A DNA stretch of 64,000 bases from an uncultured Rickettsiales bacterium (GTDB lineage: Bacteria > Pseudomonadota > Alphaproteobacteria > Rickettsiales > RI-342). Where the stretch lies: positions 14,686 through 78,685 of the forward strand of contig CAYSXY010000004.1 in NCBI GenBank assembly GCA_964435165.1, given 5' to 3'. Positions within the stretch are counted from its first letter, which is position 1. Each line of letters opens with the position of its first letter. The position numbers and the translations under genes were made by a program. Below are positions 2,762-52,903 of the stretch, piece by piece. A model generated the notes under the pieces. The model had not been told where the DNA came from and did no database searches. It saw only the letters and a program-made list of their open reading frames with translations.

Positions 2762-3073
2762 ATGTCTCCGCAGCATATCCAGGATGATGAAAGCTTTGCC
2801 GCCCGATTAGATGAGGCACGCCAGCGCGCCGGGCTTGATCAGCCGGATGAGACGCCATTGCACGGCCCGGCCAACGGCAAACGCGAAGGGCTGGGACTGG
2901 TGATTCGCGTCATCAGCGAGATGATCGGTGGGGTCGTGGTCGGCGTGTTGATCGGCTATTGGCTCGATCAATGGCTCGATACATCGCCACTGCTGCTGAT
3001 TATTTTTTTCTTTCTCGGCAGCGTCACCGGCATGTACACGGTTTACAAATCTGTTTCTGTGGGTAAAAGGTAA
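2762..3073 (+). CDS. atpI: ATP synthase protein I (AtpI/AtpZ family)
   Basis: Small protein with two TM helices immediately upstream of atpB, which is the typical alphaproteobacterial F0 operon layout. Confidence 0.7.
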   Translation: MSPQHIQDDESFAARLDEARQRAGLDQPDETPLHGPANGKREGLGLVIRVISEMIGGVVVGVLIGYWLDQWLDTSPLLLIIFFFLGSVTGMYTVYKSVSVGKR

Positions 3074-3118: not shown

Positions 3119-3859
3119 GTGAGTGCCGATAATAAGAGTCCGCTCCAGCAATTTGAAATCACCCCTCTCATTGAGCTTCCAAGTGTTGGTGGATACGATA
3201 TCAGTTTTACCAACTCATCGCTCTTTATGATCCTGACGGTTGCCGCGATCATTCTCTTCATCGGTGGCGGTATACGTAAACATGCCATGGTGCCCGGGCG
3301 CTGGCAGTCCATGGTAGAGATGACCTATGAATTCATCGCCAATATGGTGAGCGACAATGTCGGGCGCGAAGGACGGCGCTATTTTCCCTTTATTTTCACT
3401 CTCTTCCTCTTTGTGCTGTTTGGTAATTTGTGGGGGATGATGCCCTACAGTTTCACCATCACCAGCCATGTCATCGTGACATTCGCCTTAGCAGCGTTTA
3501 TATTTGTTGGGGTTACGGTCATTGCTCTGGTGAAGCATGGTACTAAATTTTTTGGGTTTTTTCTCCCGGACGGCACTCCCGGTTTATTAATCCCATTGAT
3601 CTATCCGATTGAAGTTATGTCCTATCTGGCGCGCCCCATCAGCCTTTCTGTACGTTTGGCCGCCAATATGATTGTAGGGCATACGCTGTTGAAAGTAATT
3701 GCGGGCTTTGTTGTGATGATGGGCGTGATTTGGGGAACGATACCGTTTGTCTTCCTGATCGGCCTGACTGGTTTTGAATTTTTCATTGCCTTTTTGCACG
3801 CTTACATCTTCACCATTTTGACTTGTATTTACCTGAATGATGCACTACACCTGCACTGA
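3119..3859 (+). CDS. atpB: F0F1 ATP synthase subunit a
   Basis: Polytopic membrane protein with the conserved LSVRLAANMIVGH arginine motif. GTG start. Confidence 0.92.
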   Translation: MSADNKSPLQQFEITPLIELPSVGGYDISFTNSSLFMILTVAAIILFIGGGIRKHAMVPGRWQSMVEMTYEFIANMVSDNVGREGRRYFPFIFTLFLFVLFGNLWGMMPYSFTITSHVIVTFALAAFIFVGVTVIALVKHGTKFFGFFLPDGTPGLLIPLIYPIEVMSYLARPISLSVRLAANMIVGHTLLKVIAGFVVMMGVIWGTIPFVFLIGLTGFEFFIAFLHAYIFTILTCIYLNDALHLH

Positions 3860-29730: not shown

Positions 29731-30107
29731 TCATGGATTCTTCGGCTACGCAGCCACGCTTCTCGCCCAGGATGACGATATTGACGTCAGCTCTATCATT
29801 CCCTCCCCCGCAGGCGGGGGAGGGTCAGGGCGGGGGAATTATAGAGAAAAAGATGACCTGATTATTCTTCCCCCCTTCCCAACCTCCCCCCGCAAGCGGG
29901 GGGGGAATGGCATGGTGTCATGCTCCCGGCCTGTCATTGTGATTACAGTCTGGATTCGTCGGCTAAACCGGCGAATGACAACAATCTTTTTCACGCGTCA
30001 TCCTGAGCGGAGCGGCGATAGCCGTGTAGTCGAAGGATCTATTGCTTATCTGGCTTTTGCCACAAGGCGCCATGGATGTTTCGACTCGCGATGCTCGCGG
30101 GGCATGA
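29731..30107. repeat. Composite cluster 1 of dispersed intergenic repeats (REP/MITE-like)
   Basis: It contains:
- GC palindromes ccctcccccgcaggcgggggaggg (29801-29824) and ctccccccgcaagcgggggg (about 29884-29905).
- ggattcgtcggctaaaccggcgaatgacaa (29951-29980), 28/30 identical to 42028-42057.
- A palindromic element of about 112 nt at 29996-30107, homologous to 39423-39540. Confidence 0.85.
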
Positions 30108-30228
30108 CGTATTGTTCTCATGCACAGTAATGACAAATTTATTGGCCTCGCGCACAAGTAAAGTTGGCACAATCATTGCATCGCTTATTTCAGCATACAG
30201 ATGAGAAAAAACGACGTAAGGATGTGTC

Positions 30229-33969: not shown

Positions 33970-36579
33970 ATGATTATGCGCCGTTATCTGGACATTAGTG
34001 AAGTCGACACCAATGATTTCAAGGTGCGACAGCATAAACCGCTGCTATCAGTCGTACTTGGTGCATATTTGCTGGCATTTGTGATTATTATCGGCACCGC
34101 ATCGATCAGCAACGAGATTGGCGGCATGCCTGTCTTCACCATCGTCACGCTGGTAATGCTCGGCTTTTCTGCCTGGGTCACCTATTTCAATACGCAGCGA
34201 AGTCGCGACCTGGTGACAGCCACGGAATTTCAAAACGCACTCTTTTCATCCATTGCCCACTTGCACAGCAGTTTTATTGTGATTGTGCGTAATACGGGCG
34301 GGATCATGTATTACAGCAGTAATTACCCGGCCATGTTCAGCGGCACACGTCGCCGTGGATTGACCACCATCGATGCAATTTTTGAGACAGACGGCATCAG
34401 TGCCGAAGATGCCGCACGTATTCGCAGCGCACTGGCAGACGGCAAACCGGAACAGTTGATTTGTGAAGTCAAAGATGTGGATGGCAACAGCCAGCCCATT
34501 CGTCTGACCATTCAGCCTATTCCCCGCCCCTCCGGGTTTTTTGTGATTAGCGGCTCCCCATTACGGCGGCGTGTCAGTGACAATGCGCCCAGCCAGGGGC
34601 GCGACGGTCGCGGCGGCGAAAGCGGTTTTTTCCGCGATGGTCTTAATGCCGTCCCTATTGGTAGCTGCCTATTCGATAAGGACGGAGATCCTTCCTATAT
34701 CCACCCGGATATCGAACTATGGCTTGGCTATCAACGCTATGAAATTCAACGCCAGCATTTGACACTGGATGCGCTGATATCCGATGAAACCCCGGGCGAT
34801 CTGAAATCAACATTCCTGACAGATAAACTGTTTGATGGTCATGTGTATTTTGCCCATAAATCCGGGCGCTCGCTGCGTGCGACAGTGACCAAGCGGGCTG
34901 TTGTTGACGAGAAAGCGGATTTCAACGGCACGATTTTAATCGTTCAACCATTCGATCAATCCTTTGCCCACCTCTCCAGCTTTAGTGCCAGTACCGGCGG
35001 TGCTTATGCTGGCACGCCCCCCAACCAGGAATCCATCGATGATGCGTCGACAACCGGCCTCAGCCGTGTGATGCAGGAAGCTCCCATCGGTATTGTGGTC
35101 ATCGACAAGGACGGAAACATTATTCAGAATAATCGCTTTTTCAACCAGATGGTAGAATCCGTCACCGCTAACCCGCGCAATCTGATGCGGTTGATTAAAA
35201 ACGACTTTCATGACGATCTCAAACGCCGGATTCAGTCATGTATGACGCAGGGTTTTTCCGAAGACGAGCCGCTTTCGGTTGAAATTGCGACCTCCGATCA
35301 TATGGCCGCCTCGATTTACGTGACCTGTCATAACCAGGCAGAGGGTCATGTCGCCGCTTATCTCATCGAAACGACCGAACAAAAGTCGTTGGAAATGAAA
35401 TATGCACATTCACAGAAAATGCAGGCTGTGGGCCAGCTTGCCGGAGGCATCGCGCATGATTTCAATAATTTGCTGACCGCAATGATCGGGTTTTGCGATT
35501 TGCTGCTGATGCGTCATCCGGCTGGCGATCAATCCTTCGCCGATATTATGCAAATCAAGCAGAATGCCAACCGCGCCGCCAACCTTGTGCGGCAGTTGCT
35601 GGCCTTCTCGCGCCGTCAGACCCTGCAACCAACGCTACTCGATATCACCGATGTGCTGGCTGAATTGTCGAATCTCATCCGTCGCCTGATTGGAGAGAAT
35701 ATCGAACTCAACATGGTGCATGGGCGTGATTTAGGCATGATCAAGGTGGATCAGGGTCAGCTTGAGCAGGTGATTATCAACCTGGCCGTTAATGCGCGTG
35801 ATGCCATGGCTGATGGCGGTGAATTGACGATTCGCTCGGCAAATATTGTTGTCAATAATCAGCATCCTTTAGATGCTGCCCTTATTTCACCCGGTGACGA
35901 TGACCCGGTCGCGGCCGGGGATTATGTGATGGTCGAAGTGATCGATAATGGCTGCGGTATCGCCCGTGAGAATGTCAGCAAGATTTTTGAGCCATTTTTC
36001 TCGACCAAGGAAGTTGGCTCCGGCACCGGCCTTGGCCTGGCGACCGTCTATGGGATTATCAAGCAAACCGGCGGATATATTCTCGTCGACAGCAAAGAAA
36101 ATGAGGGGACACGCTTTGTGTTGCTCTTCACCTTGCACCAGCCAAGTGAAAGCCAGCAAAAAGAGGCCACGCAAATTCAGGGCGAACCGCCTGCCTCCAA
36201 AGACTTGACCGGACGCGGCACTATCTTACTGGTGGAAGATGAAACGCCGGTGCGTTCTTTCAGTGCCCGGGCGCTACGTAATAAAGGCTACACCGTTATT
36301 GAAGCTGACTGCGCCGAAGCTGCCCTGGAGCTTATGGAGACACAGGGCAGTGAGATTGAGGTGATTATCAGCGATGTGATTATGCCCGGTATGGACGGGC
36401 CAAGCATGGTGCAACAAATCTGGGAGAGCCGCCCGGATATCAAGGTGATTTTTATCTCCGGCTATGCCGAAGATGCGCTGGTGAAAATGGAAAACAGCAC
36501 CCGCCCCTATGACTTTTTGCCGAAGCCATTTACGCTCAAGCAACTGGCGCAGAAGGTGAAAGAGGTAGTGAGTAAATAG
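33970..36579 (+). CDS. cckA: Hybrid sensor histidine kinase/response regulator, CckA-like
   Basis: Two N-terminal TM helices and PAS-like regions. H-box [22 protein letters not shown], HATPase DNGCGI...[22 protein letters not shown] and C-terminal REC (ILLVEDE...[12 protein letters not shown]...LPKPF). There is close recalled similarity to Caulobacter CckA around the DHp/CA domains. Confidence 0.7.
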
Positions 36580-36596
36580 GGTTATATGTATACCCA

Positions 36597-36868
36597 CGTG
36601 CTCGCCTACTGACTCGCACATGGGGTGAAGCTCAAGGCTGCTCGGAGTTGTTTATGTTCGCCTCCGATGATGCTTTGCATCCCCATGAGGCTAGCTCAGG
36701 GCTGCTGACCTCGTAGAAATTCATTCATTATGCCATCTGAATGAATGGATACATATCTTCTACGCCGCAATAAGCGGCGACGCGCTTGCCTTACGGATTC
36801 ATATCCACCAATCTATTTATATAAGTACATGCGCCAATTCCCGACTCGTGATGCTCGCGGTGCATGAC
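36597..36868. repeat. Composite cluster 2 of dispersed intergenic repeats
   Basis: cgtgctcgcctactgactcgcacatggggtgaagctcaaggctgctcgg (36597-36645) is homologous to 52165-52210. A second half-unit catgaggctagctcagggctgct is present. ttcccgactcgtgatgctcgcggtgcatgac (36838-36868) is a half copy of the element of about 112 nt. Confidence 0.8.
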
Positions 36869-36959
36869 AATCCATCGCATATCTCCACTTGCGAAGCGGG
36901 TGGAAGCGTGTAGGTTGTTTATATATATTTAACGTTCTTACTAGGGGATCAGGAACACC

Positions 36960-38029: not shown

Positions 38030-39325
38030 TTGACGCGCACCCGTTCTTCAACACCCCATGCCTCCGACTCTCCGGCACAATGGCTGTATCTTGACCTGAA
38101 CAGCTATTTTGCCAGTGTTGAGCAACAGCTGGTGCCTGAGTTGCGTGGCAAGCCCGTGGCCGTGGTGCCGGTGATGACCGATAGCACCTGCGCTATTGCC
38201 GCGAGTTATGAGGCCAAAGCTTACGGCGTGAAAACCGGCACGATGATTTATGAGGCCAAGCGACGATGCCCGGGGCTTATCTGCGTGCAGGCGCGACATG
38301 ATGCGTATGTTGACTTTCATCATAAGATCTTAGCCTCGATCGAGCATCACTATCCGATTAGCCAGATTCTATCGATTGACGAGGTAGCGTGCAAATTGGA
38401 TGCCCACCGCCAAGTGCCCGAGCGAGCCATTGCGCTGGCCAAGGCTATGAAAGCCGGCATCACGCGTGATATTGGCCCCTATGTGCGCTGCTCCATTGGC
38501 ATCGCGCCCAATCGCTTTCTGGCCAAAGTCGCCAGCAATCTGCAAAAGCCGGATGGCCTGACCCTGCTCGGCATGGATGAGTTGCCGGAGCGATTGCTGC
38601 CCCTTGCCCTCACCGACTTACCGGGCATTGGCCGGGGCATGAAACGACGGCTGGAACGTTGTGGCATCACCACCATGGCGCAGCTATGGGCCTTGCCCCC
38701 CAAACAGATGCGCGCCATTTGGGGCGGTGTGGGTGGTGAGCGCTTTTGGCGGATGTTGCACGGGCTGGAAGTGGATGACATTCCCACTCGCCGCCGCACG
38801 ATTGGCCACAGCCACGTGCTGTCACCGGAATGGCGGCCGCAACCACAGGCGCGATTGGTCACCCGTCGCTTGCTAAGTAAAACAGCCAGCCGTCTGCGGC
38901 GCATGGAATATCATGCCACCAAAATGGAGCTGTCGCTACGCGTTGAGCACGGGCCACGGCTTCATGCCATACGCTCTTTTCATCGCGCTTGCGACACGCA
39001 TAGCCTGCTGCATGTGGTGGAAAGTATGTGGGAGGAACTGACGCACCCGCTGGAATCCAGCATTCGCATTAAAAAGGCCAGTGTCACCTTACACGGACTC
39101 ATTGCCAACCGGCAGGTGCAGCCAGATTTGTTCGATGACCCCTCGACACAAGAAGATGGTTCAGCTCAGCGCTCCGAAGCACTTTCCCACGCGATTGATG
39201 CCCTCAACAGCAAATTTGGCCGCGACACCGTGACCATCGGCAGCCTGCCGAAACAGCTGAATAGCTTCTCCGGCACCAAAATTGCCTTCACCCGTATTCC
39301 GGATAAGCAGGAATTTCATGAGTGA
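38030..39325 (+). CDS. Y-family (UmuC/DinB-like) translesion DNA polymerase
   Basis: WLYLDLNSYFASVEQ (first catalytic Asp) and SIDEVACKLD (the catalytic D-E pair). TTG start 9 nt after the recA stop. Confidence 0.8.
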   Translation: MTRTRSSTPHASDSPAQWLYLDLNSYFASVEQQLVPELRGKPVAVVPVMTDSTCAIAASYEAKAYGVKTGTMIYEAKRRCPGLICVQARHDAYVDFHHKILASIEHHYPISQILSIDEVACKLDAHRQVPERAIALAKAMKAGITRDIGPYVRCSIGIAPNRFLAKVASNLQKPDGLTLLGMDELPERLLPLALTDLPGIGRGMKRRLERCGITTMAQLWALPPKQMRAIWGGVGGERFWRMLHGLEVDDIPTRRRTIGHSHVLSPEWRPQPQARLVTRRLLSKTASRLRRMEYHATKMELSLRVEHGPRLHAIRSFHRACDTHSLLHVVESMWEELTHPLESSIRIKKASVTLHGLIANRQVQPDLFDDPSTQEDGSAQRSEALSHAIDALNSKFGRDTVTIGSLPKQLNSFSGTKIAFTRIPDKQEFHE

Positions 39326-39344
39326 TGCTGCGCTATGTTTATTT

Positions 39345-39690
39345 GCCTCCCGCCTCGCCTTCTGACTCGGCGTTAAGGCGCAGCTCAGGGCTGCCGGCCT
39401 CGTTGACTTATCTTAATCACATGTCATCCCGAGCGTAGAGCCTATGGCTCGGAGTCGAAGGATCTATTTCGTCACACTCTTTGGCATCTAGCTATGAGGC
39501 ACCGTGGATGTTTCGACTCGCGATGCTCGCTTAACATGACATAAAAACCTTATTATACCGCTGCGCTCAGGATAATGTATTCACTTACTTGTCATCCCAG
39601 AATGCGGGCAAGCAGGCGAGCATATCTGGGATCCATCCCTCACAAGGACGAAACCCACCAGTAGCCGGGCAAGCAGGCCCGGCGTGTCAT
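39345..39690. repeat. Composite cluster 3 of dispersed intergenic repeats
   Basis: Diverged copy of the ctgactcg...gctcagggctgc unit (about 39351-39400). The palindromic element at 39423-39540 is homologous to 29996-30107. The element of about 100 nt at 39591-39690 is homologous to 41802-41958. Confidence 0.85.
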
Positions 39691-39806
39691 TGCAATTGCC
39701 ATCCGGACATTTGCCATCTGGGTTGCCCGCCGACAATGACACATCTGCCAGATTAGTATATAGCTGCTTTTTCAGAACACTCACTCCTCTAGACAAAGGA
39801 TTTTTC

Positions 39807-40121
39807 ATGCAGTTTCTTGTGATTGCCAAAGACGGTGCCGATGCTGACGCGCTCAAGCGCCGCCTGGCCGCCCGGGATGAACATTTGCAGCATACGGATG
39901 AGATGATCGCCAATGGCAATGCGCATATGGCGGCAGCGCTGCTCGATGATGACGGGCAGATGAACGGCTCGGTGATGATTGTGGAGTTTGAGTCGGAAGA
40001 TGCCTTTCGCAGCTGGCTGGACAAAGAGCCGTATGTCACCGGCAAAGTGTGGGATAAAATTTCCGTTACGCCCTGCAAGATTGGCCCCAGCTTTCTTGAT
40101 GCATCGCGCAAGGCGGCATAA
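39807..40121 (+). CDS. YciI-family protein
   Basis: MQFLVIAKDG...RLAARDEHLQH...GSVMIVEFESEDAFRSWLDKEPY shows the typical YciI pattern. The track ORF is extended upstream into a repeat, so the start is set at the ATG at 39807. Confidence 0.75.
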   Translation: MQFLVIAKDGADADALKRRLAARDEHLQHTDEMIANGNAHMAAALLDDDGQMNGSVMIVEFESEDAFRSWLDKEPYVTGKVWDKISVTPCKIGPSFLDASRKAA

Positions 40122-40257
40122 CTGGCGAGTGGGACGCTAACGCGGCCTGTGTCATCTTTCCTTTACATTTTCGTGCTATATTCCACCACTTAGGGAATCT
40201 GCCACCAATCGTATGAATGAACGGCAGTAGCGGTTTAACCACATTGTGAACCGAGGC

Positions 40258-41076
40258 ATGAGTGTTATGGCACAACAAAAACAAGTTGCGATTATATCCA
40301 ACCCGACCATTGAAGCGGTCTGTTATCAACTGTTCAAATTTCCAACCGAGGCTGAGGCCGTTGAACGGCTGGAGACCATCAAAGATTATTTCATTGTCTC
40401 TAAAGAGCAGGATAATGAGACGGAGAACCTCTCCGTTAAAATATGGATCAAAGGATTTATGGTCACCGAAGGCGAAGAAAAGCTGGGTTATCTCGGTAAT
40501 TTCGCCCTCATGCAATATGCGCTGACCGAAGACGGCAAATACACGCTTTATGCCGAAAAGCTGGAAGTTCCACTACGCACCCATCCACAAAAACGCTATC
40601 CCAAGCATAAACACCCCAATTGGGGTCACCCGGTGCTGCGTAAAATCAAAAAGGGGCATGTTTATCCTACCATTGAGGACGCCCAGGCCGACTTGCAGCG
40701 TCTGCATGAAGAATTCCCGCAAGTGTCCATCCCCACCAATGCCAAGATGTATATCATCATCTACAGCAAGGATGGGCCGGAAGACAAGCGACCGGTAAAG
40801 AAGTTTATTCTTGAAATTCAATTGGTTGATGGCGGCGGCTTCACTATTGAGATTAAAGAGAACACCTATCGCAAAGAGGATAACCCGAAAAAAAGCGAAG
40901 CGACAGTTGAGCAAAGCGAGGAAGATAAAGAAGCGCAGGGCTACTTTGCCTCCATGGTTGATCTCAAACGCGCCAAGAAAAACAAGCGCAACATTCTGGA
41001 TGAGGTGGCCGAAGCCCGCAAGGCAGAGGAAGAAGATGGCGAGGACGCCCCTCCAGCGGAGTCTTCAGAGCAGTAG
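40258..41076 (+). CDS. Hypothetical protein with a Lys/Glu-rich C-terminal tail
   Basis: Long ORF with no recognisable motif. The start is ambiguous (40246 GTG, 40258 or 40267 ATG). Confidence 0.5.
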   Translation: MSVMAQQKQVAIISNPTIEAVCYQLFKFPTEAEAVERLETIKDYFIVSKEQDNETENLSVKIWIKGFMVTEGEEKLGYLGNFALMQYALTEDGKYTLYAEKLEVPLRTHPQKRYPKHKHPNWGHPVLRKIKKGHVYPTIEDAQADLQRLHEEFPQVSIPTNAKMYIIIYSKDGPEDKRPVKKFILEIQLVDGGGFTIEIKENTYRKEDNPKKSEATVEQSEEDKEAQGYFASMVDLKRAKKNKRNILDEVAEARKAEEEDGEDAPPAESSEQ

Positions 41077-41231
41077 GTCGCTCCAACCAGCCCTTGATAA
41101 ATAACGCTTTTCAGCGCCCTGTCATGATGGCGTCATGATTTTTCTGTATCATTGGCAATGAGTCTTTGGTTTTGTGTATGCAAACCATGAGACGCTTAGT
41201 CCAAATAGGTTGAAAAGTTTATATATGCTCA

Positions 41232-41642
41232 ATGTCTGGTAAAATTGTACTTGGACCCGAATTCTGGCAAGCGATGCAACTCGAGAATGCCTTGAAGCGG
41301 ATGCACGATATCGTGCTGAACCATCCGCTCAAGGACGGTAAGGCCGTGTTGGAGTTCCGGCGCGGCGAGGACAATCAAGAGTCAGTGCGTTTGCTGAACG
41401 TGATTCTCGGTTGCACGGGCTTATCGATCACGTTGGATGCTATTATGGCATTCCAGCCCGGGGAGAGCATCACGGTTCCCGTGAACAGCTCCCCTTTGAT
41501 CGATCAGTGGCCCGTGCCGCTGGAATTCGATGATAGCCTGATTTTCGCCGTAGCAGCAGAAGAGAACGAAACACTCGTTCTCGAATTCTACGGCGACGAA
41601 GAATCGGTGACCGTTATCGCCTACGGCGTAACAGTCAGTTAA
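41232..41642 (+). CDS. Hypothetical 136-aa protein
   Basis: ORF only; no recognisable motif. Confidence 0.4.
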   Translation: MSGKIVLGPEFWQAMQLENALKRMHDIVLNHPLKDGKAVLEFRRGEDNQESVRLLNVILGCTGLSITLDAIMAFQPGESITVPVNSSPLIDQWPVPLEFDDSLIFAVAAEENETLVLEFYGDEESVTVIAYGVTVS

Positions 41643-41653
41643 CCTAATTCTGG

Positions 41654-41695
41654 GAGGTGGTGTGAACGTTTTGTTCATGCCTCCTCATCGTTTTT
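41654..41695 (+). terminator. Possible intrinsic terminator after the 136-aa ORF
   Basis: Imperfect hairpin gaggtggtgtgaac / gttcatgcctc, followed within 7 nt by TTTTT. Confidence 0.35.
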
Positions 41696-41744
41696 CTCTC
41701 TACTTATTCAGCCATCACTTGTTGCTATCATGATTGCTCGCTAA

Positions 41745-42123
41745 TGGATCCTTGCCTGTGCGGCTGCGCCGCTGCGCTCGGGATGACGATTTATTCTTGG
41801 TGTCATCCCGGAATGCGAGTTAACAGCCCTGAGCCGCGCCTCATGGAATTGTGAATACAATTCCGGAGGCAATCAAACAATCATGAGCATATCCGGGAAT
41901 CCATCCCTCACCACGACGAAACCCATCAGTAGCCGGGCAAGCAGGCCCGGCGTGTCATCATACCTGATATCTGGATTCCGGCATTCGCCGGAATGACAAT
42001 ATTTCTATCATTTTGCGCGATAAGGTTGGATTCGCCGGTTAAACCGGCGAATGACAATAACAACGTTCGCCGGAATGGCATTGAGGTAGACATGGTCGAC
42101 TACGCAGCAGCGCTTGTCTGGCC
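41745..42123. repeat. Composite cluster 4 of dispersed intergenic repeats, including a nested insertion
   Basis: - The element at 41802-41958 matches 39591-39690 but is interrupted after gaatgcgag by about 66 nt carrying cagccctgagccgcgcctcatgg plus the palindrome ggaattgtgaatacaattcc.
- ggattcgccggttaaaccggcgaatgacaa lies at 42028-42057.
- tcgactacgcagcagcgcttgtctggcc (42096-42123) resembles 29741-29770. Confidence 0.85.
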
Positions 42124-42178: not shown

Positions 42179-44989
42179 ATGACTACGACCGTCAATGACA
42201 TTCGCCGCAACTTCCTCTCCTATTTTGAGTGCAAAGACCACCGAGTGCAGCCATCCAGCCCCTTGGTGCCGCAGAATGACCCGACGTTGATGTTCACCAA
42301 TGCCGGGATGGTGCCGTTTAAGCATATCTTCACCGGCGCAGAGACACCGCCTGCCCCACGCGCCACCACCAGCCAGAAATGCGTGCGCGCCGGGGGCAAG
42401 CATAATGATCTGGACAATGTCGGTTACACGGCGCGGCATCACACATTTTTTGAGATGCTCGGCAATTTCTCTTTCGGTGATTATTTTAAGGAAAGCGCCA
42501 TTGCCTTTGCCTGGGAATTGCTGACCAAGGATTTTGGCCTGCCGCAGGACAAGCTGTTTGTTACTGTCTATCACACCGATGACGAAGCCTTTGAGCTGTG
42601 GCGCAAGATTAGCCGCTTGCCGGAGAGCAAAATTCTGCGGGTGCCGACCAATGATAATTTCTGGAGCATGGGCGATACTGGCCCGTGCGGGCCATGTTCG
42701 GAAGTGTTTTATGACCATGGCGAAGGCATCGAAGGCAAGTGGGCGCTGGATAAAGACGGGAGCGACCTGTTTGAAGACCGCTTTATTGAGATATGGAATC
42801 TCGTCTTCATGCAATATGAGCAGGTGGATAGCGAGACGCGTATTGACCTGCCCAAGCCATCCATCGACACCGGCATGGGGCTGGAGCGCATCGCCGCTGT
42901 GCTGCAGGGGGTGCATGATAATTATGACACGGATTTGTTCGTCAGCCTGATTGATGCGGCTGAGGACGCGGTGAAAGCAACAGTGACGCCGACAAATCAT
43001 GCCTCCTTCAAAGTAATTGCCGACCATTTGCGCTCCTCCTGCTTTTTGATGGCCGACGGCGTCACGCCCTCCAATGAAGGGCGCGGCTATGTGCTGCGAC
43101 GGATTATGCGCCGGGCCATGCGCCACGCCCATATTCTGGGTAGCAAAGACCCGCTGATGCACCGGCTGGTGCCGTCGCTGATTCATGAGATGGGTGCCGC
43201 CTACCCTGAACTGGGCCGGGCCGAGGCGCTGATGACCGAGACATTGAAAAATGAAGAGACGCGCTTTCGCGAGACATTGGCGCGGGGGTTGCATTTGCTG
43301 GAAGAAGAAACCGGCACGCTAGCCTCCGGCAAAGCACTGCCGGGTGATGTCGCCTTCAAACTATATGACACCTATGGATTTCCAGTTGATCTGACCGCTG
43401 ATATTCTGCGAGGCCAAGGGCGAGAGGTGGATATGGCAGGCTTTGATGCCGCCATGGCCGAGCAGAAAGCCCGCGCCCGCGCCGCCTGGAGTGGGTCGGG
43501 GGGCAAATTTGTTGAGCAACTCTGGTACGAAATATCTAACCAGCATGGAAAGACTAATTTTACTGGTTATGAAGAATTGGAAACCATAGGTAAAATTCTT
43601 ACTTTTGGTGACCCAAGAGATTTTCGTGCAGAGACTGATGAGGAACAAGTTGTTGGGCAATTTACAGCCGCAGGAGGCGTTCGTCTCGAAGCAGGTGAAC
43701 CCATATTGATTATAACTGATAGAACCCCATTTTATGGCGAATCAGGCGGACAGATTGGCGATCAAGGTGTGATCTCAGTGCGCGACGAGAATGGAGCCGT
43801 TATAAAGATTACAGATACCCAGAAACCAATTGAAGACATTATTGTTCACTACGGCACGGTAGTACAATCCGGGTTAATTTATACTAATGTAGAAGTTACG
43901 CTTTCTGTTGAGGTGTCACGACGCAATCGCCTGCGAGCGAATCATTCAGCCACACACCTGCTGCATAAGGCACTGCGCGATGTGCTGGGCGAGCATGTGA
44001 CGCAGCAAGGCTCATTGGTGGCAGAAGATAAGCTGCGCTTTGACATCTCGCACGCCAAGCCGCTAACCGCAGAAAAAATCCAGCAGGTAGAACGCAGAGT
44101 GAATCATATGATCTGGTCGAATAGCGAGGTGAACACACGCATCAGCACGCCGGAAGAGGCGCAGAAAGCGGGCGCTCTGGCGTTGTTTGGCGAGAAATAT
44201 GGCGATGAAGTGCGCGTGGTGAGCATGGGTGTTCAAGGCAATGGAGACAACAAAGAAGGAGGCCAGCAGGCCGATCCAGCCTTGAGCTCCGCCTCATGTG
44301 CGAGTCAGCAGACGAGCACGGAGGCATATTCAATAGAACTTTGCGGTGGTACGCATGTGGCGCGCACGGGCGATATTGGCCTGTTCAAAATTACCGAGCA
44401 ATCCGCCGTGGCCGCTGGTGTGCGACGGCTCGAAGCGGTGACGGGCGATGCCGCCTTTATCCACCTCACCGGGCAGGAAGCACGACTCAGGCAAGCTGCC
44501 GATGCACTCAAAACCTCCCCTGCCGAACTGCCAGAGCGGGTCCGTGCACTGGTGGCTGAGCGCAAGCAGTTGGAACGCCAGCTGGCGGATGTGAAAAAGC
44601 AATTGGCACTGGGCGGCAGTCAACAGGCTGCCAATGGAGCAGACAATGCGGTGGAGACCATCGGCAACACAAAATTTATGGGCAAAATTGTCGCGGACAT
44701 TCCGGCAAAGGAACTGAAAGGGATGGCAGACAGCCTGAAGAAGCAACTCGGCTCCGGCGTTGTCGCGCTGCTTGCAACTGATTCAGACAAAGGGAAGCTA
44801 TCGATTGTGGTTGGGGTGACCGATGATTTGACTGGCAGCACCAGTGCGGTGGAGTTAGTCAAGGCTGCCTCGGAGGCGGCAGGTGGCAAGGGCGGCGGCG
44901 GCCGGCCAGACATGGCTCAGGCCGGCAGCCCGGATGCCGGAAAAGCCGCCGATGCTTTGGCTGCGGTAAGACAACGATTGGCTTCTTAA
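42179..44989 (+). CDS. alaS: Alanine--tRNA ligase
   Basis: Class II motifs, FSFGDYFK, editing-domain HSATHLL and ELCGGTHV, and a C-terminal DHHA1-like region. At 936 aa it is longer than usual (see findings). Confidence 0.97.
44256..44320 (-). repeat. Copy of the dispersed ctgactcgcaca...gctcaaggctg repeat lying in frame inside alaS
   Basis: The reverse complement of 44277-44320 is cgtgctcgtctgctgactcgcacatgaggcggagctcaaggctg. The intergenic copy at 52165-52210 reads cgtgctcgtcctgctgactcgcacattgagcgcagctcaaggctgc. By eye about 40/46 positions match. Confidence 0.75.
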
Positions 44990-51082: not shown

Positions 51083-51871
51083 ATGCGCAGGCCCCGCTTG
51101 CGTCCGGCCATACGCCGCAAACGCCGCGTGGTGTCCATCAGTCGGCTGGTGCCGAATTTTGTTACGCTGATCGGCCTGTGTGTAGGCTTAAGTTCAATTC
51201 GCTTTGCGCTGGATGAACGCTGGCATCATGCGGTAGCGGCGATTTTGCTTGCGGGAATCATTGACGGCATGGATGGCCGACTTGCACGGCTACTCAAAGC
51301 CACCAGCGAATTTGGTGCTCAGCTTGATTCGCTCTCTGATTTCGTCAATTTTGGCGTGGCACCAGGGTTATTGATTTATCTGTGGTCGACCTATGAATTA
51401 CGCGGATTTGGTTGGGCAATCGTTCTACTGTTCGCGGTGTGCTGTGTCATACGCCTCGCACGGTTTAATATCAGCATCCTGGATGATGATGAGGATGAGC
51501 GCCCAGCCTGGCGGGAGCGCTTTTTCGTCGGCGTGCCCTCACCGGCCGGAGCCATGCTGGCGCTCGCCCCCATCATGATCTGGCTGGAGTGGGAGATGGA
51601 ACTGTTGCGCGAACCTTATGTCATGGCAGCCTGGTTAACATTGGTCGCCATGCTGATGGCCAGCCGGTTGCCCACCTATTCGCTCAAAAAGATCGTCATT
51701 CGACATGACCTTGCCCTGCCTATCATGCTGTTGGCGGCATTGTTTATCATATCACTGGTCACCGAGCCCTGGCTTACTCTGGCGGCCATTTCCATCCTCT
51801 ATGGGCTGAGTATTATCGTCAGCGTCTTACATTACAAGCGCCTCTACCATCATGTGCCGGACACGCTTTAG
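51083..51871 (+). CDS. pssA: CDP-diacylglycerol--serine O-phosphatidyltransferase
   Basis: Exact CDP-alcohol phosphatidyltransferase motif DGRLAR-x8-G-x3-D-x3-D (DGRLARLLKATSEFGAQLDSLSD). It follows psd by 1 nt. Confidence 0.88.
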   Translation: MRRPRLRPAIRRKRRVVSISRLVPNFVTLIGLCVGLSSIRFALDERWHHAVAAILLAGIIDGMDGRLARLLKATSEFGAQLDSLSDFVNFGVAPGLLIYLWSTYELRGFGWAIVLLFAVCCVIRLARFNISILDDDEDERPAWRERFFVGVPSPAGAMLALAPIMIWLEWEMELLREPYVMAAWLTLVAMLMASRLPTYSLKKIVIRHDLALPIMLLAALFIISLVTEPWLTLAAISILYGLSIIVSVLHYKRLYHHVPDTL

Positions 51872-51880
51872 ATAGTGTTG

Positions 51881-52141
51881 TCAGCCATGCCGTATTTTGA
51901 GAATCAGAATGGTGCATGCCAGCCCCAGCGTCACAATGTTGGCGATGATCATGGGCGGGCGTTCCAGCATGATGCCATAAATCAACCAGAATAAGACGCC
52001 CGTTGTAAACATGGCATACATCCAGAGCGAAATGTCGCGCGTATGTTTGGTGCGGATCACCATCACCGCCTGGGGAACAAAACACAGGGTGGTGAGAATT
52101 GCGGCAATGGTGCCAAAAATGTCAGCGCTGGTAAATTCCAT
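51881..52141 (-). CDS. SemiSWEET / PQ-loop family transporter (86 aa, 3 TM)
   Basis: LCFVPQAVMVIRTKHTRDISLWMY...FWLIYG is the PQ-loop signature. Confidence 0.8.
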   Translation of the reverse strand: MEFTSADIFGTIAAILTTLCFVPQAVMVIRTKHTRDISLWMYAMFTTGVLFWLIYGIMLERPPMIIANIVTLGLACTILILKIRHG

Positions 52142-52164
52142 TATCTCAACTTTTTATTTGCTCC

Positions 52165-52210
52165 CGTGCTCGTCCTGCTGACTCGCACATTGAGCGCAGC
52201 TCAAGGCTGC
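52165..52210 (+). repeat. Solitary copy (cluster 5) of the ctgactcgcaca...gctcaaggctgc repeat
   Basis: cgtgctcgtcctgctgactcgcacattgagcgcagctcaaggctgc is homologous to 36597-36645 and, in inverse orientation, to 44277-44320. Confidence 0.8.
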
Positions 52211-52305
52211 GCCTAGCCTACAGGCCTCTGTTTCACTTTATAATTGATAGTTATTGTCAGTCATAGAAATTGATTATTGTGTATCACAAAAAATATGTTT
52301 CATCT

Positions 52306-52335: not shown

Positions 52336-52423
52336 TGTAATTACAGGATGCCTGTATGGGTCCTGTCCATCATAAATCGCGCGATGGATGGTATGTACTT
52401 GCTTAATCAAGGAGATCAATACC

Positions 52424-52903
52424 ATGAATACGTTATCTTTATCCCCTCTTTTTCGTCAATCCGTCGGGTTTGACCGGTATAATGACTTGTTCAATTCGCT
52501 GCTTGGCAGTGAAGAGAGCGCCCCTTCCTACCCACCTTATAATATTGAGCGGAAGGATGAAAATCATTACCGAATCGTCATGGCCGTTGCCGGGTTTGCC
52601 CCGGAAGAGGTCGATGTGGTTGCTACCGCCAATACATTGGAGATCAGCGGCCAGGTTGTGGAGAACTCCGGCGATGATGCACCTCAGATAGAGTATCTGC
52701 ATAAGGGCATTGCCACGCGCGCCTTCAAGCGCAGCTTCAGCCTTGCCGATCATGTGCAGGTGCAGGCAGCGCGGATGGAAAATGGCCTGCTTGTGATCGA
52801 GCTGGAGCGCGTCATTCCTGAAGAGAAACAGCCGCGCAGTATTCCGATTCTGACGGATGAATCATCCAAGCCGCGCCTGCGTGACAAACGCCAATCCAAC
52901 TGA
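52424..52903 (+). CDS. Small heat-shock protein (Hsp20/IbpA family)
   Basis: PPYNIERKDENHYRIVMAVAGFAPEEVDV...LEISG...GIATRAFKRSFSLAD...NGLLVIEL forms an alpha-crystallin domain. RBS aaggag lies 9 nt upstream of the ATG at 52424. Confidence 0.9.
   Translation: MNTLSLSPLFRQSVGFDRYNDLFNSLLGSEESAPSYPPYNIERKDENHYRIVMAVAGFAPEEVDVVATANTLEISGQVVENSGDDAPQIEYLHKGIATRAFKRSFSLADHVQVQAARMENGLLVIELERVIPEEKQPRSIPILTDESSKPRLRDKRQSN

Follow-up and report, generated by a model that had tools for sequence, protein, structure and literature searches.

A dispersed two-hairpin repeat lies in frame within the alaS gene of an uncultured Rickettsiales bacterium

The DNA analysed here, which we call the window, is a stretch of 64,000 nucleotides from an uncultured Rickettsiales bacterium (assembly GCA_964435165.1, contig CAYSXY010000004.1, positions 14,686 to 78,685). 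It includes alaS, the gene for alanine–tRNA ligase (AlaS), as an uninterrupted open reading frame (ORF) of 936 amino acids (42179-44989, + strand). Within this ORF, just ahead of the DNA for a zinc-binding motif of the editing domain, we found a full-length member of a dispersed repeat family that is in frame with alaS and free of stop codons. We consider it highly probable that this two-hairpin repeat was inserted antisense to alaS, in the DNA for a turn of the editing domain, and that it is tolerated there as a translated, disordered loop.

RESULTS

An extra segment in the editing domain of AlaS

The identity of the gene is supported by its homologues, in which the domains PF01411 (tRNA-synt_2c), PF07973 (tRNA_SAD) and PF02272 (DHHA1) were found in 120 of the 120 listed, and the window AlaS keeps the residues that are invariant across 117 AlaS sequences, including H589, H593, C722 and H726. 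The original prediction, made from the letters of the window, had described 96 extra nucleotides in frame between VRVVSMG and the ELCGGTH region, and the ORF does read in this way. The extra segment (44231-44326, + strand) amounts to 32 stop-free codons, lies between the strands VRVVSM and SIEL, and follows VRVVSMG directly before the zinc-binding motif ELCGGTH. The spacing from EKYG to ELCGG is 48 residues in the window AlaS, against a mode of 22 (73 of the 120 closest AlaS sequences), and a spacing of at least 33 occurs in only 7 of those 120. In the AlaS of Archaeoglobus fulgidus (AlaRS; solved structure 3WQY), only 2 residues separate VG from VQACGGTH, which makes a two-residue turn at the homologous position, and in a HMMER comparison with 3WQY the insert stays unaligned and the alignment splits exactly there.

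The loop of the window AlaS exceeds the modal loop by a net 25 to 26 codons, and the inserted unit is therefore most likely about 75 nt long (44252-44326), or 25 of the 32 codons. Because this 75-nt unit has no stop in the alaS frame, the ORF is intact. The remaining residues, VQGNGDN, are probably native, to judge from their similarity to native loops such as IDEGDNDKD in AlaS protein P0003 (P and L numbers are our designations for proteins and loci). Thus, the proposal that the extra DNA is an in-frame repeat holds for about 75 of the 96 nt and not for the whole segment.

The insert belongs to a dispersed repeat family

The prediction rested on a by-eye match of the reverse complement of the insert to intergenic DNA at 52165-52210 and 36597-36645. 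This match was borne out by blastn within the window, in which 44277-44329 aligned with the reverse complements of 36589-36640 (85% over 52 nt) and 52156-52209 (85% over 54 nt), each with an E value of 1.6e-11, and of 39341-39393 (75%, E 5e-5). The match was also recovered in the form of inverted repeat pairs I1 and I2. Smith-Waterman alignment of the alaS segment, with significance taken from 1000 dinucleotide shuffles, gave a score of 69 against 52140-52250 (z = 21; the shuffles averaged 16.2 and peaked at 27), 63 against 36575-36665 (z = 20.6) and 42 against 39330-39420 (z = 10), so that the first two matches lie far above chance.

To avoid circularity, we built a covariance model of 88 positions (R2) from 19 copies of other genomes, with no sequence from the window. 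Its best match in the window was the alaS copy, found at 44245-44333 on the − strand, antisense to alaS, over model positions 1 to 88 of 88 (72.2 bits, E 5.6e-20; 81.3 bits with a further model, R1). All modules are present in this copy, each on the − strand. In the covariance-model alignment, hairpin 1 (44291-44325) has an outer stem GCCTC/GAGGC around a genome-specific inner stem (GTGCTCGTC...GACTCGCAC) with a TGCT loop, and hairpin 2 (44257-44276) reads GATCGGCC-TGCT-GGCCTCCT, that is, GGCC-TGCT-GGCC. Between them lies the core GCTCAAGGCTG (44277-44287; CAGCCTTGAGC on the + strand), which occupies invariant columns of alignments A2 and A3, and a T-rich tail (44245-44256) follows hairpin 2. 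The weaker similarity that had seemed to continue to about 44256 was therefore real: it is the second hairpin. The motif RGCTCARGGCTG occurs 6 times in the window against an expectation of 0.04, and the predicted folding energies for the insert are −33.1 kcal/mol (z = −3.6) for the + strand and −35.3 kcal/mol (z = −2.9) for the − strand. These results support the alaS segment as a full-length, in-frame, stop-free member of the family.

Six copies of the family are present in the window, one in alaS and five between genes; four of the intergenic copies were found by R2, and the fifth was added by R1 with the filters off. This fifth copy (36584-36659, +; R1 39.9 bits, E 9e-10) has a degenerate second hairpin and begins 5 nt beyond the stop of a co-oriented gene for a hybrid histidine kinase (33970-36579). 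It stands in tandem with the copy at 36652-36731 (+; 41.4 bits, E 1e-10), upstream of recA. The copy at 39337-39414 (+; 31.8 bits, E 9e-8) begins 12 nt past the stop of a co-oriented Y-family polymerase gene (38030-39325), and that at 41808-41878 (−; 43.8 bits, E 2e-11), about 300 nt upstream of alaS, consists of hairpin 1 and the core without hairpin 2. The last copy (52152-52242, +; 39.4 bits, E 4.5e-10) lies between a pssA-like gene (51083-51871) and hsp20 (52388-52903). The inner stem of the alaS copy (GTGCTCG...CTCGCAC) is shared with the copies of its own genome matched at 36589 and 52156.

Architecture and distribution of the family

Aligning the window copies revealed a modular layout, in which the inner stem varies and the loops are CTGCTG-like. 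The family unit measures about 75 to 90 nt and has two hairpins around an invariant GCTCARGGCTG core, in the order TTGCCTCCG-stem-CTGCTG-stem-CATGAGGC-nn-GCTCARGGCTG-stem-CTGCTG-stem, where nn stands for two or three variable bases. We examined covariation in alignment A2, which holds 22 copies with a two-helix structure, and found that 17 of its 22 base pairs had changed on both sides (11 of 14 in the helix of hairpin 1 and 6 of 8 in that of hairpin 2). Paired cells made up 78.7% of the alignment against 64.6% in shuffles, and the covariation score was 0.371 against 0.135 in shuffles (0 of 500 reached 0.371) and 0.05 to 0.12 in controls with slid partners. These figures give strong support to a fold with two helices. 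Among wobble pairs across the family there were 9 G-U and 15 A-C, with no strand asymmetry. Since G-U was not the commoner of the two, the hairpins could matter on either strand or as DNA.

A scan of 185,579 species genomes with a structured pattern, in a collection that does not include the source genome, returned 66 loci, of which about 28 are clearly the same element; the remainder look like chance or coding matches. Going by the submitters' labels, the hosts are several "uncultured Rickettsiales" metagenome-assembled genomes (MAGs), "Alphaproteobacteria bacterium" MAGs, a Rhodobacteraceae MAG and Hyphomonas/Hyphomonadaceae genomes. The "Alphaproteobacteria bacterium" isolate bins.82 gave six matches, the related genomes carry several family copies per 8-kb locus, and the Hyphomonas-type copies lack the second hairpin. 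A metagenome scan for the core followed by the ELCGGT codons (CAGCCYTGAGC N{35,65} GARYTNTGYGGNGGNAC) gave 0 matches, and it also missed locus L069, which fits the pattern (see below). A further metagenome scan returned seven loci, six of them real and all six intergenic.

Other searches were negative. Rfam gave no match at its gathering score in the window, and nothing meaningful at an E value of up to 5 on the canonical or the alaS copy; blastn of the element against a plasmid collection gave no match; and a literature search with the core motif turned up unrelated papers only. At the protein level, phmmer found no match to the 32-residue insert among 1.84 billion representative proteins, a set in which the window AlaS (P0001) is evidently not itself a representative, and a profile of padded element-encoded peptides yielded 65 candidates, none at an E value of 10 or below. 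A protein search with an AlaS profile (A6) that included both alaS inserts returned only short AlaS fragments, without P0001 or P0007 (the AlaS of L069), and is informative only about variation in loop length.

In-frame copies in other genes and in a second alaS

We sought intragenic copies by searching the retrieved loci for ORFs running across family members, and found seven further in-frame copies in other genomes. With the host proteins identified by Pfam, they lie in xseA (L024, sense), recJ (L042, antisense), recO (L015, antisense), glyQ (L049, antisense), hemF (two copies) and a second alaS. The hemF copies (L005, 1071-1169 and 1422-1510, both antisense) share one gene of a Rickettsiales-labelled MAG, and in the weaker of them the stems are fully compensated and there is a 10-nt internal insertion. 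The occurrence of in-frame copies in these other housekeeping genes makes the description offered by the original prediction, behaviour like that of Rickettsia palindromic elements (RPEs), an accurate one.

The second alaS copy, in L069 from a JGI metagenome, is antisense and in the same loop as that of the window alaS (R2 58 bits, E 1e-15). The outer stem shows compensation (GCCCC/GGGGC), and this copy lacks the inner stem of the window alaS copy. The net insert is 25 codons in both genes, yet the two are read in different frames, giving PSPEPRPIGS in L069 and PALSSASC in the window. The two AlaS proteins are 61% identical and rank only 90th (P0001 for P0007) and 101st among each other's 116 comparisons. 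The sequences closest to P0007 (76%, 72% and 70% identity) have short loops; in the 76% relative, L082, the loop reads VDAATRKP and no family copy was found in 22.6 kb. Likewise, the window's nearest sampled AlaS relatives (L070, L071 and L072) have short loops, and with filters off no family copy was found in 93.6 kb comprising these three loci together with L067 and L068. The comparison thus supports the insertion as the derived state and favours independent insertions in the window and L069 alaS genes. The relatives might have carried the same loop without the repeat, or the match might have been no better than chance; neither was found, since the relatives are short-looped and free of copies and the match is above chance. 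As a separate observation, a 7-nt tandem, TACTCCG-TACTCCG, lies in L069 (~3028-3050) exactly at the junction of the element with the YSVE codons, on one side only.

The AlaS loop as an insertion site

An AlphaFold2 model of the window AlaS, run with 117 AlaS sequences (mean predicted local distance difference test score [pLDDT], 83.3), placed a strand at residues 678-683 (VRVVSM), coil at 684-717 and a strand at 718-721 (SIEL), with pLDDT below 50 at 688-712. As had been expected for a surface loop, the insert is predicted to be a disordered excursion from the turn of a beta-hairpin, adjoining the Cys of the CxxxH zinc motif. The predicted coil and the two-residue turn of 3WQY would both put the inserted peptide at a solvent-exposed site of the kind described for RPEs.

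Unrelated sequences enlarge the same loop in other AlaS lineages. In L067 (8786-8905) it holds a near-perfect palindrome of 117 to 120 nt, (GTCGCAA)4...(TTGCGAC)4, with a predicted RNA folding energy of about −65 to −66 kcal/mol. The same palindrome, apart from one compensatory change in the arms (GCACG/CGTGC), is kept in L080 (4975-5091); the AlaS proteins of L067 and L080 share 86% identity. The lineage of these two loci has the same recA-alaS-IDH synteny as the window, and the locus encodes ankyrin-repeat proteins. In L068 (11981-12037) a GC-rich hairpin, CCCCTCTCCCGCTCGCGGGAGAGGG, encodes SPLPLAGEGQGEG, and in L081 (11981-12058) a tandem 15-nt repeat encodes ATAAG-ATAAG. Because unrelated palindromes and a tandem repeat occupy it in other lineages, the loop looks like a recurrently used, permissive site. 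The junctions shift by a few codons between lineages, which favours a permissive site combined with selection over a sequence-specific target; even so, the loop may be an insertion hot spot rather than merely permissive. A similar caveat about hot spots has been made for Rickettsia and Wolbachia elements, where one gene region can hold elements in different genera and the question of hot spots was not closed (PMC3767692; review PMC10969869).

Position and orientation of the copies

Counting co-oriented ORFs of at least 100 codons, we found that 16 of 29 intergenic copies had an ORF stop 2 to 19 nt before the GCCTCC of the element, against 3 in the antisense control. In several of these copies the host stop codon lies inside the A/T-rich leader of the element (TTTAAGTT, TTATGATT). 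The intragenic copies showed the opposite bias, with seven of eight antisense and one sense (Fisher exact p = 0.002 for the first seven intragenic copies against the gene-adjacent intergenic copies). Stop codons were considered as the cause of the intragenic bias and ruled out, because open frames were equally common in the two orientations (17 in each). The sense strand may be active in transcripts, in a way that would be tolerated past the end of an ORF but not within one. A scan for terminators (a G+C-rich stem and a T run) called no copy in the window, so such activity can only be suggested here; some copies in other genomes do have a T-rich tail after hairpin 2. In L035, an inverted pair of copies (3535-3624, +, and 3653-3742, −) lies between convergent genes, each copy 2 to 4 nt past the stop of its own gene.

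Other repeats and segments in the window

The intergenic regions 29880-30130, 36740-36900, 39400-39720 and 41760-42070 are packed with several other short repeat families. These include CGACTCGYGATGCTCGC...CATGAC at 30082, 36842 and 39514; GGATTCGCCGGTTAAACCGGCGAATGACAA at 29951 and 42027 (91% identical); and GTCATCCYGAGCG...GTCGAAGGATCTAT near 29998 and 39427. Many of these other repeats carry ATGAC/GTCAT, a motif enriched in RPE-4, RPE-6, RPE-7 and Wolbachia elements (PMC3767692).

Direct repeats (39558-39615 and 41769-41826, 71%; 39628-39707 and 41896-41975, 85%) bracket some 2.2 kb of DNA (39558-41975) in the interval from the Y-family polymerase gene to alaS. This segment contains two ORFs, 40246-41076 and 41232-41642, without a Pfam match, and may be a cassette inserted in the conserved recA-alaS neighbourhood.

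AlaS itself has a second lineage-specific extra segment of about 17 residues (amino acids ~478-510, window ~43610-43710), which is absent from 16 of 16 aligned relatives. No repeat of its sequence was found elsewhere within the window. It contains a small hairpin (43602-43619), and the AlphaFold model has low confidence for residues 488-490.

DISCUSSION

We propose that a dispersed noncoding repeat of about 75 to 90 nt, with two hairpins, was inserted into the DNA for the beta-hairpin turn of the AlaS editing domain. It would have entered antisense to alaS and immediately before the zinc-binding ELCGGTH motif, and it would most likely be transcribed and translated as a hydrophilic, disordered surface loop of 25 residues that the enzyme tolerates. 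Intragenic survivors would be rare, found only where the frame was kept and the protein site was permissive, and the AlaS loop would be one such site. That the insert is harmless, and that it arrived by insertion at all, we infer from this pattern.

Several points weigh against this proposal. The alaS copy is the best preserved in the window (72 bits, against 44 or fewer for the others), which could mean that it arrived recently, that the reading frame has protected it, or that the element itself is under selection. Because intragenic copies were sought as spanning ORFs, copies that disrupt genes were not counted. The next AlaS to that of the window in the databases searched is only about 61 to 64% identical, so there is no close relative and no empty site for comparison, and the age and direction of the event therefore rest on parsimony. 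Translation of the insert, too, is a suggestion drawn from the intact frame.

The route of arrival is a further such point. Judged by eye on the consensus, no terminal inverted repeats were found; the ends (TTGCCTCCG... and ...CTGGCCTCnC) are instead direct GCCTC repeats. Among the intragenic copies we saw no consistent flanking duplication. With neither terminal inverted repeats nor a convincing target-site duplication, "insertion" is not tied to a known mechanism, and no partner transposase was identified, in an analysis that included no search aimed at transposases. Recombination or gene conversion from another copy may instead have been the source of the alaS copy. TTCAA, which flanks the alaS insert, was considered as a target-site duplication and set aside, as its two occurrences are 97 nt apart and out of frame and are probably there by chance. 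The filled and empty alaS genes of L069 and L082 are too diverged for a duplication to be read from them. At the left flank of copies TAA or TGA is common and is often the host stop codon, and at the right flank TAA is common in one genome.

Of the alternatives to passive tolerance, the one that survives best, though we think it unlikely, is that the element in alaS has been co-opted, so that its hairpins act on alaS expression or its loop changes editing or tRNA handling. The hairpins might alter mRNA stability, make translation pause ahead of zinc-motif folding, or be bound by AlaRS or some other factor. The superior preservation of the alaS copy would fit such a role, as would the presence of the same family in the same loop and orientation in an unrelated lineage (L069), the retention of a different palindrome in this loop, with one compensatory change, between AlaS proteins that are 86% identical, and the compensated stems kept in intragenic copies. 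However, the reading frame differs between the two alaS copies, which therefore have no conserved peptide in common; most AlaS genes, including those nearest to both carriers, lack the insert; and the loop is predicted to be disordered. The family is also present in unrelated genes, as passive tolerance would have it, and the lack of strand asymmetry among wobble pairs (9 G-U, 15 A-C) means that nothing points to a sense-strand RNA function.

The agreement of the window and L069 copies in family, loop, orientation and net size might also be explained by one ancient insertion in a common ancestor, lost elsewhere. We regard this as very improbable. The two proteins, at 61% identity and with mutual ranks of 90 and 101 of 116, are not each other's relatives, and the carriers are scattered and nested among insert-free relatives. 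The short loops of the sequences 70 to 76% identical to P0007 would require many precise losses, the inner stem of the window copy is the variant found in the intergenic copies of its own genome, and the reading frames differ.

More improbable still is an assembly artefact, in which the element came to lie within alaS through a repeat-induced chimera of the metagenome-assembled contig. Repeats commonly cause misassembly and the source is an uncultured lineage, but the element, at about 75 nt, is one that we take to be shorter than typical sequencing reads; it lies exactly in frame, without a stop and with contiguous alaS sequence on both flanks, and comparable in-frame copies are seen in independent assemblies, in alaS as well as five other genes. 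Finally, the idea that the intergenic copies derive from the alaS loop, or that a low-complexity or GC-rich match arose by chance, has nothing but bare similarity in its favour and can be dismissed, given that the family occurs in many other genomes in contexts unrelated to alaS, that a window-free model finds the alaS copy at E 5.6e-20, that z-scores against shuffles reach 20 to 21, and that most AlaS genes lack the segment.

Insertion followed by tolerance has precedents, and the phenomenon as such is already established; this case adds new particulars, namely the repeat family, the host lineage, the repeated use of one AlaS loop and the rules of orientation. In-frame, protein-coding palindromes have been discussed mainly for Rickettsia (reviewed in PMC10969869), and RPEs occur in frame in aminoacyl-tRNA synthetase genes such as pheT and ileS of Rickettsia japonica (PMC3767692). 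Like RPE-1 to RPE-10 and the Wolbachia palindromic elements, the family described here consists of short dispersed repeats with stable predicted hairpins, has many in-frame copies in unrelated housekeeping genes whose ORFs stay unbroken, and adds peptides at sites that are, in this case by prediction, exposed to solvent. It differs in its size of about 75 to 90 nt, against roughly 100 to 150 bp for RPEs (PMC10969869, PMC3767692), in its G+C content of 0.57 to 0.63, and in having an invariant GCTCARGGCTG core flanked by two hairpins. Nor is the host Rickettsia: the window has a G+C content of 0.52, and no other AlaS is more than 64% identical to the one it encodes. A further difference is the strong preference for positions just after stop codons; to our knowledge, no such preference has been reported for RPEs, and we know of no mechanism by which RPEs move. 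The likeness is therefore one of behaviour, and in size, G+C content and host the element departs from published descriptions of RPEs; the hallmark behaviour named in the original prediction is there, and membership in a Rickettsia RPE family is not demonstrated.

With REP and BIME sequences (the REPIN-RAYT system), the family shares G+C-rich hairpins with covarying stems, concentration at gene 3′ ends, and copies that are single, in tandem, or in inverted pairs between convergent genes (as in L035, which resembles a REPIN doublet). A REP is a single imperfect palindrome of 20 to 40 nt with a GTAG or CGTC head (PMC3733652). By that description our element is not a REP, having 75 to 90 nt, two hairpins, a conserved unpaired core and a start at TTGCCTCCG; moreover, REPs are extragenic by name and habit, whereas eight copies here are intragenic. 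[quoted passage not shown] The features that define MITEs are terminal inverted repeats and target-site duplications; the former are lacking in the consensus as judged by eye, and of the latter we saw no convincing example.

More tentatively, and with the odds rather against it, the repeat may be a hitherto undescribed structured gene 3′-end element of several alphaproteobacterial lineages that acts at the RNA or DNA level and is more than selfish DNA. It might serve as a signal for termination, mRNA stabilisation or ribosome release, or as a site that a protein binds. We raise this reading because an invariant 11-nt core is kept between covarying hairpins across differently labelled lineages, and because sense copies lie 2 to 19 nt past stop codons and the orientation is reversed inside ORFs. 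If it were true, the AlaS loop and the sites in recJ, recO, glyQ and hemF would be places of repeated capture, and the alaS copy might still be active, either on the antisense strand or as DNA.

RPE-like insertion by a different, G+C-rich family in other alphaproteobacteria, including Rickettsiales-labelled environmental MAGs, widens the phenomenon and provides comparative material on the origin and movement of such elements. The AlaS turn has been occupied independently by this family twice, by two unrelated hairpin-forming sequences, one of them retained in two related genomes, and by one tandem repeat, which makes it a test case for distinguishing a hot spot from a permissive site. The position of copies after stop codons and their opposite orientation within genes suggest a sense-strand activity in transcripts that can be tested. 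For annotation, such inserts lengthen the loops of essential enzymes and can pass for lineage-specific domains.

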